Shown: positions 13,673 to 29,637 of the stretch, piece by piece
Numbering within the stretch: the first letter of the stretch is position 1
Layout of the letters: every line of letters begins with the position of its first letter
Notes under the pieces: model-generated
The model's input: the letters and a program-made list of their open reading frames with translations, nothing else
Databases searched by the model: none
Told to the model about the DNA's origin: nothing
Program-made: the position numbers and the translations under genes
From: Escherichia coli
GTDB lineage: Bacteria > Pseudomonadota > Gammaproteobacteria > Enterobacterales > Enterobacteriaceae
Assembly: GCF_024298765.1 (NCBI RefSeq)
Contig: NZ_CP101210.1
Strand: one strand, 5' to 3'
DNA length: 64,000 nt

Positions 13673-16600
13673 ATGAGTGTGGCGACATTACGTGAACTGA
13701 TTATTAAAATCTCGGCAAATTCCCGGTCATTCCAGTCAGAGATCTCCCGGGCTTCGCGTATGGGGCTGGATTACTACCGTACCATGCAGAACGGAGGCCG
13801 GCAGTCCGCTGCTGCATCCCGTGAAATGCGGCGTGCACTGGCAGAAGTGACGGATCAGATAAATACAGCTAAATCTTCGGCACTGAATATGGCGGGGGCA
13901 TTTGCCGGAGCTTTTGCTACCGGTCATCTTATTTCTCTCGCCGATGAGTGGAATTCAGTAAATGCCCGTCTGAAGCAGGCTTCACAGTCCAGTGATGATT
14001 TTCAGGTATCACAACGTGAATTAATGGCAATCAGCCAGAGAACGGGAACGGCGTTTTCTGATAACGCCAGCCTTTTTGCCCGCTCTGCAGCTTCCATGCG
14101 GGAGTATGGCTACAGTTCTGAGGAGGTACTGAAAGTCACCGAGGCGATCTCCACGGGCCTGAAATTATCCGGTGCCAGTACAGCAGAAGCCAGTTCGGTG
14201 ATCACGCAGTTCAGTCAGGCACTGGCGCAGGGAGTGCTGCGCGGTGAAGAATTTAACTCTGTGAATGAGAACGGCGATCGTGTTATTCGTGCGCTGGCTG
14301 CGGGAATGGGTGTTGCCCGTAAGGATCTGAAGGCCATGGCGGATAACGGAAAACTGACCGCCGATAAGGTTGTTCCTGCACTGATTAGTCAGCTTGGGGC
14401 GTTGCGTGATGAATATGCAGCAATGCCTGATACTGTTTCATCCTCTGCAACCAAAGTTGAAAACGCCTTTATGGCCTGGGTTGGTGGTGCGAACGAGGCA
14501 AGCGGAGTGACAAAGACACTCACCGGGGTGTTGAATGGTGTTGCAGACAATATTGATACCGTGGCTGCTGCAGCTGGCGCACTGGTTGCCGTCGGGGTAG
14601 CCCGATATTTTGGCAATATGGCGTCGTCTGCTGGATCTGCAACTGCCGGATTAATTACTGCAGCCAGAAACGAAGTGGCTCTTGCTGAAGCGCAACTTCG
14701 GGGGACACAGATAGCAACCGCCAGGGCGCGTGCGGCGGTTTATCGTGCGCAACAGGCGGTTGTTGCTGCTCGCGGTACCGAAAGGCAGGCCGCAGCAGAA
14801 GCGAAGCTGACAGCTGCCCAGGCGTCACTTACCCGTAATATTGCGGCCAGAACAGCGGCACAGACAACGCTGAATACTGTCACGTCAGTGGGGAGTCGTC
14901 TGTTAAGTGGTGCGCTGGGGTTGGTTGGTGGTGTGCCGGGACTCGTCATGCTGGGGGCGACGGCCTGGTACACGATGTATCAGAATCAGGAGCAGGCCAG
15001 AGAATCTGCACGCCAGTATGCCGCAACAATCGACGAAATTCGCCAGAAAACGTCGGCAATGTCGCTTCCTGAAGCGTCAGATAATGAGGAAAAGACGCGG
15101 CAGGCACTTGATGAGCAAAACAGGTTAATTGACGAGCAGAAAAGTAAGATTAAATCCTTACAGGAAAAAATTGCTGGCTATCAGTATGTGCTGGCAAACC
15201 CGGGCTGGACAACCGATAACGGTTTTATGATTAACCACATGACGTCGGTAAAAACTGTCACAGAAGGGCTTGCAGAAGCAACAAATCAACTGGCAGTTGA
15301 ACAGTCCCGTCTCACACAAATGCAGGGCAAAGCGCAATCCATTCAGGATGTGCTTGCCGGGCTGGAGGAGCGACGGGGGGCGTTGATCCGTCAACAGGCC
15401 GCGGAACAAAACAAAGCGTATCAGTCCCTGTTGATCATGAATGGGCAGCATACCGAGTTTAATCGCCTTCTCGGGCTCGGTAATGAATTACTTCAGCAGC
15501 GACAGGGGCTGGTGAATGTACCGTTACGGCTACCACAGGCAACCCTGGATGATAAACAGCAGACCGCACTGAATAACAGCGAGCGCGAACTGGCTCTGTC
15601 CCGCCTGAAGGGGGAAGCCCGTGAGCGTGCCCGCCTGGGTTATGCTGCGGATGATCTCGGCTTTGTGGGAGAGGCGTATCAGACAGCCAGACAGAATTAT
15701 ATCAATACCTCACTGGATGCCTGGCGAAATAACCAGGTAAATAAACCCAAAGCGCATAAAAAGACCGAAGCGGAAAAAACAGAAGATATTTATAAACGGC
15801 TGATTAAACAGCAAAAAGAACAAATAGCACTGGCAGGGCAGAATACTGAACTGGCTAAGATGAAATATCAGGTCAGTCAGGGCGAATTATCAACCCTGTC
15901 AGAAGCGCAGAAAAAAACGCTTTTGCAGAATGCAGCACTCATCGACCAGAAAAAGGTTCGTGAGCAGCTTGCTGCGTATGAGAGCAGTCTGGCGGACAGT
16001 AATGCCAGTGCCCGGGCATCTGACGAAGCGCAGTTGCTGGGATATGGTGAAGGCTCACGGATGCGTGAACGACTCCAGGAAATGTGGAGTATCCGGCAGG
16101 CGTTTGAGCAGAAAAATAACGAGCTGCTGAGACAGTATCAGGCCGGAGAAATTGAAGAAGCCCTGTGGAAACAGGAGAAAGAACTGAATAAAAAATATCT
16201 GGAAGAGCGTCTCAGTGATCAGCAGGATTATTATGCAAAGGCCGATGCTTTACGTAATAACTGGAATGCCGGACTCCAGGAGGGACTGACCAACTGGGCA
16301 GACAGTGCCACCGATTATGCTTCACAGGCGGCAGATGCTGTCGTTTCCACGATGGACGGGCTGGTATCAAATATTTCCGATGCACTGGCCGGGAATGTTG
16401 TGGACTGGAGGAACTGGGGGAGTTCAGTTCTCCGGGAAGTTTCAAAAATTCTGATGAATGCAGCCATTGTTAACGGACTGAAATCACTCTCCGGTGCCGG
16501 AGGGTGGCTTGGTACGGTCGGCGGATGGATTTCGGGGGCAGTGGCAAACGCAAAAGGTGGTGTTTACACATCGGCAAATCTGAGTGCTTACAGTAACACT

Positions 16601-23401: not shown

Positions 23402-23412
23402 GTGGGGTGAAT

Positions 23413-26400
23413 ATGGCAGTAAAGATTTCAGGTGTACTGAAAGACGGCACAGGAAAACCGGTACAGAACTGCACAATCCAGCTGAAAGCAAAACGTAACA
23501 GCACCACGGTGGTGGTGAACACGCTGGCCTCAGAAAATCCGGATGAAGCCGGGCGTTACAGCATGGACGTTGAGTACGGGCAGTACAGCGTTATTCTGTT
23601 GGTGGAGGGATTCCCGCCGTCACATGCCGGGACCATCACCGTGTATGAAGATTCCCGACCCGGTACGCTGAATGATTTTCTCGGTGCCATGACGGAGGAT
23701 GATGCCCGTCCTGAGGCACTGCGCCGTTTTGAACTGATGGTGGAAGAGGTGGCGCGTAACGCGTCCGCGGTGGCACAGAACACGGCAGCCGCGAAGAAGT
23801 CAGCCAGCGATGCCAGCACATCAGCCCGTGAGGCGGCAACCCATGCGACTGATGCTGCAGGCTCAGCACGCGCAGCCAGCACGTCAGCCGGACAGGCCGC
23901 GTCGTCGGCTCAGTCAGCATCTTCCAGCGCAGGAACGGCATCAACAAAGGCCAGTGAAGCATCGAAAAGTGCTGCTGCTGCAGAGTCCTCAAAAAGCGCG
24001 GCAGCTACCAGTGCCGCTGCGGCGAAAACGTCAGAAACGAATGCGGCAGCGTCACAACAATCAGCCGCCACTTCTGCATCCGCCGCGACCACGAAGGCGT
24101 CAGAAGCAGCCACCTCAGCCCGGGATGCGGCGGCCTCAAAAGAGGCAGCGAAATCATCAGAAACGAACGCATCATCAAGCGCCAGTAGTGCCGCTTCCTC
24201 GGCAACGGCGGCAGGCAATTCCGCGAAGGCGGCAAAGACGTCTGAGACAAACGCCAGGTCTTCTGAAACGGCAGCGGGACAGAGCGCCTCGGCTGCGGCA
24301 GGCTCAAAAACAGCGGCTGCGTCGTCTGCCAGTGCCGCGTCAACAAGTGCCGGGCAGGCCTCAGCCAGTGCCACCGCCGCCGGAAAATCGGCAGAAAGTG
24401 CCGCATCGTCTGCTTCAACAGCCACAACGAAGGCTGGCGAAGCCACTGAACAGGCCAGCGCAGCAGCGAGGTCTGCTTCCGCAGCGAAGACATCCGAGAC
24501 GAACGCGAAAGCGTCGGAAACCAGCGCAGAATCCTCAAAAACGGCTGCCGCATCGTCCGTCAGTTCGGCGGCGTCATCGGCATCATCGGCGTCTGCTTCA
24601 AAAGATGAGGCGACCAGACAAGCGTCCGCAGCGAAGGGCAGCGCCACGACAGCATCCACGAAGGCGACAGAGGCAGCTGGCAGTGCGACGGCGGCAGCAC
24701 AGAGCAAAAGTACGGCGGAATCCGCGGCAACGCGCGCCGAGACAGCGGCAAAACGGGCAGAGGATATTGCATCCGCCGTGGCGCTTGAGGATGCAAGTAC
24801 GACGAAAAAGGGGATAGTACAGCTCAGCAGTGCGACCAACAGTACGTCTGAAACGCTGGCGGCAACGCCAAAGGCAGTAAAATCAGCCTATGACAATGCA
24901 GAGAAACGTCTGCAGAAAGACCAGAACGGCGCTGATATACCCGATAAGGGACGCTTCCTGAACAACATTAACGCGGTCAGTAAAACAGACTTTGCTGATA
25001 AGCGTGGTATGCGTTATGTGCGGGTTAACGCTCCTGCAGGTGCAACATCTGGAAAATATTACCCTGTTGTTGTTATGCGTTCTGCTGGCTCAGTAAGCGA
25101 ACTGGCATCAAGGGTCATTATCACCACGGCAACGCGAACCGCAGGCGATCCGATGAATAACTGCGAGTTTAACGGATTTGTTATGCCTGGTGGCTGGACT
25201 GACAGGGGGCGTTATGCTTATGGCATGTTCTGGCAATATCAAAACAATGAACGAGCCATCCACTCAATAATGATGAGTAATAAGGGCGATGATTTGCGCT
25301 CTGTGTTCTATGTTGATGGCGCTGCTTTCCCTGTTTTTGCGTTTATTGAAGATGGCCTGTCAATATCCGCACCTGGTGCTGATCTCGTTGTTAATGATAC
25401 GACCTATAAGTTTGGGGCAACAAATCCAGCGACTGAATGTATCGCGGCGGACGTTATCCTTGATTTTAAGAGTGGGCGTGGTTTTTATGAGTCCCATTCG
25501 TTAATCGTTAACGATAACTTGTCGTGCAAAAAACTTTTTGCCACAGACGAAATTGTAGCGCGTGGTGGTAATCAGATTCGAATGATAGGTGGGGAGTATG
25601 GTGCATTATGGCGTAATGATGGCGCTAAAACTTACCTGCTGCTTACCAATCAAGGTGATGTTTATGGTGGCTGGAATACATTAAGACCGTTTGCTATTGA
25701 TAACGCAACCGGCGAACTGATTATTGGAACCAAACTGTCCGCAAGTCTGAACGGTAATGCATTAACAGCAACAAAGCTGCAAACGCCAAGACTGGTTTCT
25801 GGTGTTGAGTTTGATGGTTCCAAAGATATTACTTTAACCGCCGCGCATGTGGCTGCTTTTGCCAGAAGGGCAACGGATACATATGCCGATGCGGATGGTG
25901 GCGTTCCCTGGAATGCCGAATCAGGCGCTTACAATGTCACCCGCTCTGGCGACAGCTATATTCTGGTTAACTTCTATACCGGAGTCGGAAGTTGCCGGAC
26001 CCTGCAGATGAAGGCGCATTACAGAAATGGAGGTCTGTTCTACCGTTCCTCAAGAGATGGCTATGGTTTTGAGGAAGGCTGGGCAGAAGTTTATACCTCG
26101 AAAAATCTTCCACCAGAAAGCTACCCAGTTGGCGCACCAATCCCGTGGCCATCAGATACCGTTCCGTCTGGTTATGCCCTGATGCAGGGGCAGACTTTTG
26201 ACAAATCTGCATACCCGAAACTTGCAATCGCTTACCCATCTGGTGTGATCCCTGATCTGCGTGGATGGACAATTAAGGGCAAACCCGCCAGTGGTCGCGC
26301 TGTATTGTCTCAGGAACAGGACGGTATTAAATCGCATGCCCACAGTGCCAGTGCATCCAGTACGGATTTGGGTACGAAAACCACATCGTCGTTTGATTAC

Positions 26401-26814
26401 GGCACTAAATCCACGAATAACACTGGGGCGCATACCCATAGTGTTAGCGGGACTGCAAATAGTGCCGGTGCGCACCAACACAAGAGTTCCGGTGCGTTTG
26501 GTGGCCCGAACACGAGCATTTTTCCTAATGGTTATACTGCGATTTCAAATCCAAGCCCGTGGATTATGAGCACAACAAGCGGTAGTGGCCAGACTCGTAA
26601 TGCAGGGAAGACATCATCAGATGGTGCTCATACCCACTCGCTGTCCGGCACTGCTGCAAGCGCAGGCGCACATGCACATACTGTCGGTATTGGTGCTCAT
26701 ACGCACTCCGTTACGATTGGTTCACATGGACACACCATCACCGTTAACGCTGCTGGTAACGCGGAAAACACCGTCAAAAACATCGCATTTAACTATATTG
26801 TGAGGCTTGCATAA
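23413..26814 (+). CDS. stf: Side tail fibre protein Stf (about 1130 aa; expanded Ala/Ser/Thr repeat region; His-rich C-terminal fibre domain)
   Basis: N-terminus [26 protein letters not shown] and C-terminus GAHTHS...[11 protein letters not shown] match lambda Stf as recalled. Confidence 0.9.
23760..24800 (+). repeat. In-frame imperfect tandem repeats within stf (recurring AAKTSETNA...SS.SAA units)
   Basis: Repeat units visible in translation; generates long spurious ORFs in other frames. Confidence 0.6.
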
Positions 26815-27395
26815 TGGCATTCAGAATGAGTGAACAACCACGGACCATAAAAATTTATAATCTGCTGGTCGGAACTAATGAATTTATTGGTGAAGGTGAC
26901 GCATATATTCCGCCTCATACAGGTCTGCCAGCAAACAGTACCGATATTGCACCACCAGATATTCCTGCTGGCTTTGTGGCTGTTTTCAACAGTGATGAGG
27001 CATCGTGGCATCTCGTTGAAGACCATCGGGGTAAAACGGTTTATGACGTGGCTTCCGGCGACGCGTTATTTATTTCTGAACTCGGTCCGTTACCGGAAAA
27101 TGTTACCTGGTTGTCGCCGGGAGGGGAATATCAGAAGTGGAACGGCACAGCCTGGGTGAAAGATGCAGAAGCAGAAAAACTGTTCCGGATCCGGGAGGCG
27201 GAAGAAACAAAAAACAGCCTGATGCAGGTAGCCAGTGAGCATATTGCGCCGCTTCAGGATGCTGCAGATCTGGAAATTGCAACGGAGGAAGAAACCTCGT
27301 TGCTGGAAGCCTGGAAAAAGTATCGGGTGTTGCTGAACCGTGTTGATACATCAACTGCACCGGATATTGAATGGCCAGTAGCACCTATAGGGTAA
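26814..27395 (+). CDS. tfa: Tail fibre assembly protein Tfa
   Basis: Positional immediately after stf; size 193 aa. Confidence 0.85.
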
Positions 27396-28254
27396 ATTCG
27401 TAATGATTACCTAAATACGTTATTCTTTTGTTAAAAAAGTGATTTTGCTATAGGTAGGGAGTATGTTCTTGGATTAAGAATAAAAAATCGCCATGAAAGA
27501 GCTTCATGGCGAGTACATAAACGTACAAAATGTGATGAAAGTAGAGTGGCGTAAGCCACTATATTAAGATATGACAATAGCGAAGAAAAGTAAATAACAT
27601 TTCATGGACGTTTAATTGTTAATTATAAAAACTAGAGTGCCCGATATTGTTTATCTTGCTTTAAAATAATGTACTCAAACCAAATTTTTGAGCTAAAAGC
27701 TCAAATAATATAAATGCAATAATAATGTTTAATAAGACAATTAGCTTGCTTTGTATTTTCATTTCGGAATACTGTTAAGTAACTTTGATGACCCTAACAA
27801 TAGATCGGAATTTTCTTAGAGTCAATGGTCACTGTTTTTGCTTGCAAAGCAAATGTTTTGGTGGTTATAAGTTGTCTTAATATAGTCACGCATGCAACTT
27901 GTTCCATGCGGAGATTAAAGATTGGAATATAACGCGAAGATGGAATTAAATTACATTTGCAATAATCAATTTATTATTACTCAATAATTACCGATATTAT
28001 TATTGTAAATTAATCATTAGAGTGCAAAAAGAAATGTAACGGCAAAATAAGAGGACGATAGCTGAGAAAAAAGCGTGCTTTCCCAATCTGGGGCAAATCA
28101 CGTCTGAATGACACCTGAAAACAGGTGGTAGCCTCAAGAAGGCTTGGAATATTCTTCTTTAATGTTATGTAATTCATTGATTTTTCGTGTACGATTTTAA
28201 GACATTTATTCCAAGAAAAATTTTTAACTCTTTGATTTTTCGACTCTGTATCAT

Positions 28255-28316
28255 CGGTCTCGAAAACCGGAGTAGGGGCAACTCTACCGGGGGTTCAAAT
28301 CCCCCTCTCTCCGCCA
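28255..28316 (+). other. serU: Prophage attachment core: 3' 62 nt of tRNA-Ser(CGA) serU ending in CCA, no 5' half
   Basis: Sequence CGGTCTCGAAAACCGG...CCCCCTCTCTCCGCCA matches serU 3' portion as recalled; upstream sequence is not tRNA. Confidence 0.8.
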
Positions 28317-28862
28317 CTTTATCAATGACTTATCTCCTGACTTCCCGCCTTGCTTTTCCTAAACAGAACAATCGTAGAATATTCTTGAAGGGTTAGATCG
28401 TCACTGTTTTCTGTTCGATACTGTGACATTCAGCACTTGATTCGCTATGGAGCTGACAGGAAGGTTTCGAGCGAAAATCTACAGTTATTCAGTCGTTTTC
28501 TTATCGGTCACCATTATTCTTTTAGACATTGATCCTATGAAACTGCCGCAAAGTTGCTGGCGGGAACTGAAGTTGCGTAGAGAAGGGGTCAATAATTGAG
28601 TCAAAAAAGGAACGCGGCCGTCAGATTAAAGCCGCGGGACAAAGTCCATAATTTCCAAGAGTTGTTGAATTTCCCAGCTTTTTTGAAAGCCTTTGTATCA
28701 TACTAACAAGTAAAAAAGGTTTAAACACCAAAATTAACCTATATTTCTGGTTAGCTTTACCATGACAGATGACTTGCTCCTGGAAACATTTGTGCTGCCA
28801 GTCTGTATGGCTGAGTTGTGTATTTATTGTTCGCCTTTTTCGCATTTTTTTTTCTACAGACA

Positions 28863-28898
28863 TAATAAAAAAGACACGACTCAAGTATGAGCGTGTCT
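28863..28898 (-). terminator. Rho-independent terminator downstream of zinT
   Basis: AGACACG ... CGTGTCT hairpin followed by T-run on minus strand. Confidence 0.55.
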
Positions 28899-28986
28899 GA
28901 GTTTGTCTTACTTATTTGTCTTGGCAAATTATTGTTGTTACTACCAGGCACTGTTCTGTTAAATAACTGAAGTCAGCGCAAAAAAA

Positions 28987-29637
28987 TCAATGAGACATCA
29001 TCTCCTCGACCACTTCTTCGCTACTCAACTGATAGGGATAATACGTTGGCCAGTTTTCCATTTCATTCAATAAAGACTGTTGGGAATCATTACCCATAAA
29101 AATGTGAAAATGAGATGATTTTCGTGGTGCAATTATATGATCGCTAAATTGTATATATTTAGGGGCTTTGCTTTCAGGATCTTTACATTCGAATAAGTAA
29201 CGAACGCCTTTCTTGCCTGATTTATAGGTGAGTATTTTGTATCCATCGTAATCATATTTACAGGATGTTGTTTCATTATTTCTATGGAATTCGACAATGC
29301 CGTCCTCAATGCCAATCATCTCGATGTCTGTCACATAACCTTTGCGATAATAATCTTTAATTTCAGCAAATGTTTTGGTTTTATCTGCATCCGCTTTCTT
29401 CTGAAAGACGGGGTCAAGTTTGCCACTTTGCAGTAAAGGATAAACGGATTGCCAGACTCCATCCCAGTCACTGAGCGTTCGGTTTTGTACATTGGCATCA
29501 TCAAAAACACCATTAGCAGCTTTTTGTTCGACCTCTGTTAAGGGTTTGCCGTGTGAGTGATGACCATGCGAAAAGGCAGGAGCGCTAACAATAAAGACAC
29601 CTAAAGCAACAGCCAGTTTATGAAGACGAATCGCCAA
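28987..29637 (-). CDS. zinT: Zinc/cadmium-binding periplasmic protein ZinT
   Basis: Signal peptide plus HGHHSHG metal-binding motif; matches ZinT. Confidence 0.95.

Follow-up and report, generated by a model that had tools for sequence, protein, structure and literature searches.

A candidate yncL-like small gene and a putative integrase arm at an apparently gene-free end of an Escherichia coli lambdoid prophage

The morons of the lambda late region, of which lom and bor are examples (the moron concept is that of Hendrix and colleagues), and the P arm of the lambda attachment site (attP), where the order of sites is P1-H1-P2-X/F-H2-core, are two of the described systems with which we compare the end of a lambdoid prophage; among phages that use a tyrosine integrase, a core lying in the 3' half of a tRNA gene is common. 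The prophage end in question is the 859-bp segment at positions 27396-28254 of a 64-kb window of an Escherichia coli chromosome (the window being the whole stretch of DNA that was analyzed, to which all coordinates refer); the prophage ends at 28254, and the segment holds a 33-codon open reading frame (ORF) that we propose to be a small gene related to yncL. YncL (K-12 b4598), an inner-membrane protein of 31 residues, is induced by heat shock, in minimal medium and in stationary phase; when it is produced, the membrane is sublethally depolarised, a phage-shock response sets in, the nucleoid condenses and the cells become hypersensitive to magainin-2 (PMC12542507). It is a membrane protein cleaved as a substrate of RseP in vivo (PMC10470546), and in Salmonella its gene lies inside the "sRNA" STnc1110 (sRNA, small RNA) and depends on sigma-S (PMC5437024). 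The K-12 yncL mRNA is reported to be an RNA-RNA interaction partner of RprA and of KilS, an sRNA from a 3' untranslated region (UTR) of the Rac prophage (PMC8175672; bioRxiv 10.1101/2025.09.11.675593), so that cross-talk between a prophage and YncL already has a precedent.

Comparison of the segment with 5426 complete E. coli genomes makes it probable that it is a mosaic in which a small cargo unit, filler and an integrase P arm have come together, two functional units being joined. The whole 859 bp were found by BLAST in 271 of these genomes and many more carried part only, the partial matches splitting into two blocks of the query (1-578 and 665-859) that are distributed differently among genomes. 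The parts, and the gene from which the first of them departs, are as follows.

26814-27395, plus strand: tfa, the tail-fibre assembly gene, an ORF named "tail fiber assembly protein" by the Prokaryotic Genome Annotation Pipeline (PGAP) in the identical locus of strain EBJ003; module A begins at its stop codon.
27396-27973 (query 1-578), minus strand: module A, a tfa-linked cargo unit carrying the small gene, in about 830 of the 5426 genomes (about 15%).
27974-28059 (query 579-664): linker, an AT-only junction sequence limited to the arrangement seen in the window.
28060-28254 (query 665-859), plus strand: module B, the P-arm side of a serU-type attachment site.
28134/28136-28254 (query 739/741-859): minimal arm, the sole part matched (84-90%) in distant serU prophages and in phage SerU-LTIIb.

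The linker is limited to the window-type arrangement because carriers of module A leave the similarity at 27973 for a tfa 3' remnant or other DNA and carriers of module B enter it at 28060, and positions 27974-28059 would thus be junction filler. Module B was found at 96-99% identity in many serU prophages without module A. In all contexts inspected, which include various attachment (att) sites, module A lay directly behind the 3' end of a tfa gene, be it whole or partial.

Strain 042: module A at a ydfJ/Qin-type site, 95.5% identity.
LI60C3: module A adjoining sitABCD, 93.6% identity.
PCP06235 and TUM12355: module A of a 78.5%-identical lineage (the PCP lineage), near intS/argW and near a sit island.
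A further context: module A beside an IS1.
Phages ev099, PhiR70_1 and mEp332: module A in lambda-att phages.

Strain 042 and the PCP lineage have another tfa 3' remnant behind module A, in the same orientation (locus L008, 3824-4686; locus L011, 2824-3686), and a position between two direct tfa 3' fragments appears to be the scar typical of tail-fibre module recombination. Module A thus seems to travel with tfa and not with the att site: it is absent from some serU prophages that have the same arm and present at other att sites. Like the lambda late-region morons, it is a self-contained unit with a terminator and a probable promoter that lies among or after tail genes and is patchy in related phages, and its expression from the prophage is plausible by the same analogy. 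Of its own signals, the terminator is clear and conserved and the promoter is a conserved consensus match alone. We propose that module A is a moron oriented against the late operon; in contrast to the lambda examples, its gene is far smaller (33 codons), unannotated and on the opposite strand.

The gene that module A appears to carry had not been singled out in the sequence-only reading of this region.

27661-27762, minus strand: yncL-like ORF, 33 codons plus stop, MKIQSKLIVLLNIIIAFILFELLAQKFGLSTLF.

Among all ORFs of at least 20 codons, this is the sole one with start and stop retained in all five variants of module A, which span about 21% DNA divergence. Between the window and the PCP lineage, 18 of its 102 nucleotides and 5 of its 33 residues differ, the substitutions falling 7/1/10 on the three codon positions, and the changed codons comprise seven synonymous and five conservative non-synonymous ones; on the LI60C3 branch five changed codons are synonymous and one is non-synonymous. 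In simulations that placed 18 substitutions according to the spectrum seen elsewhere in module A, 11.8 residues changed on average, with a probability of 1.2e-4 for five or fewer and of 4e-5 when an intact frame was also required; P stays below 1e-3 after correction for the roughly 10-20 ORFs examined. The ORF is also intact in phages ev099, mEp332 and PhiR70_1 and in 13 IMG/VR contigs. We count it as a real gene because the frame is kept and change across the diverged copies is biased to synonymous sites, and on this evidence it appears to be an intact gene under purifying selection. The suggestion that the segment might hold a recombination arm plus a decayed cargo gene comes nearest among the three options raised, being borne out for the arm and for the cargo and failing for the decay.

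The signals around the ORF are arranged in the order expected of a small transcription unit.

27797-27825, minus strand: putative sigma-70 promoter, TTGACT-17-TATTGT, about 28 nt upstream of the ATG.
27478-27512, minus strand only: intrinsic terminator, a 10-11 bp stem at 27488-27512 followed by UUUUUUAUUC, found both by a terminator scan and as a perfect inverted repeat.
27837-27853: palindrome TTTGCTT-GCA-AAGCAAA (TTTGCTTGCAAAGCAAA), a perfect 7-3-7 repeat 12 nt upstream of the putative -35.

The -35 and its flanks are invariant and the -10 reads TATTGT or TATCGT in all variants. The terminator lies about 150 nt past the stop codon, with all stem pairs kept in the five variants, and transcription of the small gene would accordingly stop at the first hairpin of the segment. 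The order and spacing of promoter, ORF and terminator are kept in both lineages, and the spacers between them have diverged by 35-40%: counted per 32 nt, the deep lineages differ at 10-13 positions in the spacers, at 5-7 in the ORF with its 5' leader and promoter (27679-27806) and at 1-2 in 27492-27555. An mRNA of about 310 nt, driven by the promoter at 27825-27797, would end at the hairpin and U-run of the terminator at 27512-27478, and in its predicted fold the AUG lies in an unpaired AU-rich stretch. The palindrome, which is kept only in part in the PCP lineage, could be a regulator-binding site.

Among the families of NCBIfam, the predicted 33-residue protein matched one, NF000537 ("stress response membrane protein YncL"), with E = 1.3e-5 and 3.7e-5 for the two lineages, and none of 10 shuffled sequences gave this match. 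By BLASTP, 11 of 28 residues (39%) are identical to K-12 YncL (MNVSSRTVVLINFFAAVGLFTLISMRFGWFI) and 18 of 28 (64%) are positives, in a gapless alignment from Met1 with E = 2e-7; the Smith-Waterman score of 60 was reached by none of 20000 composition-preserving shuffles of the query (mean 20, maximum 54), and the same held for shuffles of YncL. The two proteins share a length of about 30 residues, a single hydrophobic helix (in the prophage protein, GRAVY 1.51 with a hydrophobic core at residues 7-24), alignability from Met1 to Gly28 and the polar landmarks S5, K/R6, N12, K/R26, F27 and G28. They also share a history of being overlooked, tiny as their genes are: Salmonella yncL (STM14_1932, within STnc1110) was first catalogued as a non-coding sRNA (PMC5437024). 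On the other hand, the prophage gene is linked to tfa whereas yncL lies in a chromosomal patD-ortT context, its flanks have no DNA similarity to those of yncL, and its product is two residues longer, with the C-terminal tail LSTLF in place of WFI. These comparisons suggest that the protein is a distant, prophage-borne paralogue of YncL; we place it there, and not among the members of the equivalog family, because its score falls under the curated cut-off of NF000537 despite significant full-length similarity.

By analogy with YncL, the prophage protein would insert in the inner membrane of the lysogen and lower the membrane potential, moving the cell towards a stress-tolerant, low-activity state, and its role would be one of lysogenic conversion, not a virion function.

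Several results weigh against a functional yncL-like gene. The scores against the YncL model are 25.0 and 23.5 bits (model positions 1-28 of 30), below the curated cut-off of 35, and the protein had no match in Pfam; PHROGs and PADLOC gave none either. No Shine-Dalgarno sequence precedes the ATG in any variant, the upstream sequence being TTAACAGTATTCCGAA-ATG, whereas K-12 yncL has AAGGTGG. Promoter-like matches in the segment number 7 against 5.2 expected, no better than chance alone, and with no overall enrichment we infer the promoter step. A profile search of 1.84 billion representative proteins returned just the protein itself and one frameshifted copy, a scan of viral contigs (IMG/VR) returned 13 loci that are all 97-100% identical and add no further diversity, and a scan of one genome per species returned a single locus, on an E. 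coli-like contig binned into a Collinsella metagenome-assembled genome. As far as the collections searched show, the gene is thus confined to E. coli lambdoid prophages. With only two deep lineages, all from E. coli prophages, and no further diversity, the selection test rests on few independent substitutions. The proposed function, finally, is one that we infer from a 39%-identical paralogue studied by overproduction.

The best surviving alternative is that the product of module A is an RNA, instead of or besides a peptide, namely an Hfq-type sRNA of about 85 nt derived from the 3' UTR.

27478-27566, minus strand: conserved transcript 3' end with an sRNA-like look, consisting of a 5' hairpin, an 18-nt single strand, a small hairpin and the terminator.

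Such an RNA (27566-27478) would act through the 18-nt stretch CUACUUUCAUCACAUUUU on host or phage mRNAs. The block is the least diverged part of module A, with 1-2 differences per 32 nt against 10-13 in the adjoining spacers, which goes beyond the conservation of the ORF; it folds at -27.1 kcal/mol (z = -6.3) into the succession of elements just listed, the terminator carrying six U, and this structure is kept in all variants. In its hairpin, open stretch, U-run terminator and unusual conservation it resembles the 3'-UTR-derived Hfq sRNAs CpxQ and KilS of the Rac prophage (PMC8175672), but unlike them it is known from its sequence alone and matches no Rfam family. However, none of its 21 pairs has changed in a compensatory manner, the U-run is broken in the PCP lineage (UUUCUU), and the low divergence is explained equally well by a recombination patch, the PCP lineage having clearly exchanged DNA with the 042 type further right, where 27869-27932 shows 0-1 differences per 32 nt. 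Nor does an sRNA account for the synonymous bias of the substitutions in the ORF. We therefore regard this alternative as unlikely. Independent mobility of the 3' block was considered and rejected, as the block was never found apart from the rest of module A. A dual-function locus, in which a YncL-like peptide is made and the 3' end is released as a phage-borne Hfq-type sRNA that rewires host expression in about 15% of E. coli strains, is in our judgment equally doubtful.

A type I toxin-antitoxin module, in which a 33-residue membrane toxin would be held by an antisense or divergent sRNA from the plus strand and would stabilise the prophage end, is in our view improbable. The peptide is indeed small, hydrophobic and of a single helix, its relative YncL depolarises the membrane and cuts viability when produced early (PMC12542507), and the missing Shine-Dalgarno sequence could mean tight translational control; a weak promoter-like site on the plus strand (27571-27600) and a weak hairpin with a T-run (27837-27860) could bracket an antisense RNA. 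But NCBIfam includes curated type I toxin models (PGAP names HokD elsewhere in the prophage), and at E values up to 10 it returned YncL alone; neither PADLOC nor Pfam had a match, and the toxin option raised in the sequence-only reading thus found no counterpart among known toxin families. Both signals that might delimit an antisense RNA are weak and show little conservation in the PCP lineage, the 5' UTR does not look long and structured if the TTGACT promoter is the one in use, and the effects of YncL are sublethal, with no antitoxin known for it (PMC12542507).

That nothing is expressed, the segment consisting of arm sites and neutral, AT-rich, H-NS-bound junk from tail-fibre recombination and the ORF and its YncL resemblance being due to chance, is likewise improbable: PGAP annotates nothing there in any listed genome, the ORF lacks a Shine-Dalgarno sequence, the module boundaries coincide with tfa remnants as recombination scars would, and most 6-bp hairpins are not conserved, but the ORF has been retained with mostly synonymous change (P = 4e-5), its similarity to YncL is full-length and composition-controlled, and the promoter-ORF-terminator layout was kept while the spacers diverged by 35-40%.

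The second unit of the proposed mosaic is the integrase arm. In an alignment of prophage ends from the window, O26, SerU-LTIIb, O103:H2 and O158, the sequences are unrelated up to about 28135 and near-invariant from GGCTTGGAATATTCTT to the core. The sites recognized there are the following.

28143-28153, plus strand: arm-type site P1, CTTGGAATATT, invariant in the alignment.
28170-28182, minus strand: site 1 matching the consensus of integration host factor (IHF), AATCAATGAATTA, in the 18-nt direct repeat D2.
28205-28214, minus strand: arm-type site P2, TTGGAATAAA, inverted relative to P1, in inverted repeat I3 and invariant in the alignment.
28225-28237, minus strand: IHF-consensus site 2, AATCAAAGAGTTA, whose core TTTGATTTT is invariant in the alignment.

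The two IHF-like sites (WATCAANNNNTTR at 28170 and 28225) lie within D2 at a spacing of 55 nt, and four of the seven IHF-consensus matches of the 64-kb window fall within 27964-28332. The exact 11-mer CTTGGAATATT recurs in two tandem copies at the integrase end of the EBJ003 prophage (positions 13834-13857 of locus L006), about 60-80 bp from serU, and a variant copy, TTGGAATTAC, was recognized by eye at 13825; no further match with at most one mismatch was found in the 49-kb EBJ003 locus. The region thus adjoins a core that belongs to the 3' half of a tRNA gene and is shared with the bacterial target, its repeats flank that core on both sides, IHF-consensus sites stand between arm sites and core, and it is conserved, unlike the neighbouring DNA. 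We conclude that 28136-28254 (at most 28060-28254) is the P arm of a serU-type attachment site, with putative integrase and IHF sites at which, by analogy with lambda, the two proteins would assemble the excision/integration complex.

As in the P arm of lambda, the roughly 120 bp next to the core hold two arm-type sites in alternation with two IHF-consensus sites, and tandem arm repeats stand on the integrase side (here two exact and one variant). The serU arm differs in its consensus (CTTGGAATATT), in the mutual inversion of P1 and P2 and in that our knowledge of it comes from DNA comparison only; no Xis or Fis sites were identified in it, and in the literature nothing relevant was found on mEp332 or on a serU attP. 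The proposal that the region includes a recombination arm therefore holds for its last 120-195 bp, where repeats, IHF-consensus sites and a sharp onset of conservation at about 28136 coincide, and comparison with the attP regions of related serU phages delimits the minimal arm to 28136-28254. The gap of about 860 bp had correctly been called longer than an arm-site region. The same P arm was also observed, at 97.5% identity, in E. coli O26:H11 FWSEC0001 (locus L009, 3001-3250) at a non-serU site near uspF/ompN; at that junction identity to serU ends after CGGTCTCGAAA, which suggests that a secondary site was used, with just about 11-13 nt of core.

The core itself was correctly traced to serU, as the plus strand at 28255-28305 equals the 3' part of the K-12 gene.

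28255-28305, plus strand: att core and displaced tRNA end, a host serU 3' fragment from the anticodon stem to CCA, identical to K-12.

The gene serU encodes tRNA-Ser(CGA), and past 28305 the sequence follows the K-12 DNA downstream of serU, then zinT, msrQ and msrP. In EBJ003, the complete serU at the opposite end of the prophage received its 3' half from the phage, and this half has two compensatory changes in the variable arm, which places the crossover in or near the anticodon stem-loop. In the interval 28306-28986 of the window we noted the absence of yodB, a gene that K-12 and O103:H2 12009 have between serU and zinT and that EBJ003 also lacks; similarity to K-12 downstream of serU ends near 28762. 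A host-type serU 3' fragment with about 290 bp of downstream DNA, equivalent to 28255-28595 of the window, was also observed in the b region of phage ev099 (locus L002, 4860-5197) and of mEp332 and PhiR70_1, followed by a gene for an AraC-family regulator and IS2 fragments; these phages own a genuine lambda attP and int, and the fragment appears to be a fossil attR junction from a serU prophage, the phage now integrating elsewhere.

Several properties of the segment as a whole had been pointed out before. It contains no ORF of at least 60 codons, as claimed, when ORFs wholly inside 27396-28254 are counted, the largest encoding 55 residues (28010-28177, minus strand) and 48 residues (27431-27577, minus strand); a 69-codon ORF with a GTG start at 28187 exits the segment through the tRNA fragment to 28396 and is almost certainly spurious. 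It is also AT-rich, with a GC content of 0.265-0.375 against about 0.50 in tfa and in the tail fibre gene.

23407-26814: tail fibre gene, one of the last genes of the prophage.

Under the listed matches of the segment among RefSeq genomes PGAP has placed no annotation, and the records of ev099, mEp332 and PhiR70_1 show nothing at the gene or other ORFs, which are probably spurious. Further candidates within the segment were discarded: the 48-, 37- and 35-codon ORFs are not conserved among the variants, and in a 24-codon plus-strand ORF (27493-27567) that overlies the terminator all differences are non-synonymous.

28010-28177, minus strand: 55-codon ORF, which starts within the arm, overlaps P1 and IHF-consensus site 1 there and ends in the linker.

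This ORF, to which the sequence-only reading drew attention, is present, lies mostly in sequence that other arm carriers lack and is called "hypothetical" in some records and left unannotated by PGAP. Its product had no family match in PHROGs or NCBIfam, and, overlapping the arm sites with its distal part in a linker that is absent from other carriers, it is probably not a gene.

The five perfect inverted repeats listed from the sequence were all present, with offsets of 0-2 nt.

27488-27512: hairpin 1, TCGCCATGAA/TTCATGGCGA, a perfect inverted repeat with a 10-11 bp stem.
27545-27560: hairpin 2, AGTGGC/GCCACT, in the conserved 3' UTR.
27688-27704, extending to 8 bp at 27687-27705: hairpin 3, TTGAGC/GCTCAA, inside the coding sequence of the small gene and broken in the PCP lineage.
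27890-27909, or with 6 bp (CGCATG/CATGCG) 27889-27910: hairpin 4, GCATG/CATGC, weak and not conserved.
28112-28127: hairpin 5, CACCTG/CAGGTG, in the portion of module B that is absent from divergent serU phages.

Perfect stems of at least 6 bp with loops of 3-10 nt gave 16 entries, nested variants included, against 4.3 (sd 2.7) in 1000 dinucleotide-preserving shuffles (P about 0.001), and a 10-bp stem turned up in about 3% of such shuffles. The richness in perfect hairpins is thus real, yet a clear role can be assigned to the first hairpin only, and no covariation was found for any hairpin across the variants. A permissive Rfam 15 scan of 26500-29500 gave nothing credible in 27396-28254, where the lone match (ceN44, E = 9.7) is noise, so that the small-RNA option received no support from known families; the remaining matches fall on the tRNA fragment, except for one in tfa. 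This last is a 226-bit match to IS009 (RF02111) at 27157-27355, wholly within the tfa coding sequence, and the IS009 "RNA family" may be conserved tfa 3' coding sequence or its remnants.

The segment is 100% identical in strain EBJ003, where the other prophage end, about 40 kb leftward, holds an entire serU together with an integrase gene. The integrase beside the complete serU (locus L006, 13806-14856), at an end that lies outside the window, is annotated as frameshifted, and the EBJ003 prophage may on that account be unable to excise; it carries a PGAP-annotated HokD elsewhere. At 1130-1439 of the window we observed a prophage-borne cluster of four tRNA genes, the first of which is tRNA-Met(CAT) according to ARAGORN; PGAP names the tRNA at the matching EBJ003 position tRNA-Ile, presumably lysidine-modified.

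Taken together, these comparisons indicate that the region is not gene-free and would hold an unannotated small-protein moron beside a conventional attachment-site arm. For serU-integrating phages, the attP arm is narrowed to about 120 bp in which candidate sites can be named, and the case illustrates that phages with a tail-fibre module or an integration site in common allow the arm sites of an "empty" prophage end to be told apart cleanly from its cargo. Of 5426 complete E. coli genomes, 830 (about 15%) have module A, as do three isolated lambdoid phages, with its gene unannotated in the listed RefSeq records. If the peptide is made, the phage would carry its own version of a small stress-response membrane protein; the chromosomal relative lowers the membrane potential, and the prophage form would be a candidate lysogenic-conversion factor for stress tolerance, antimicrobial-peptide sensitivity or superinfection.

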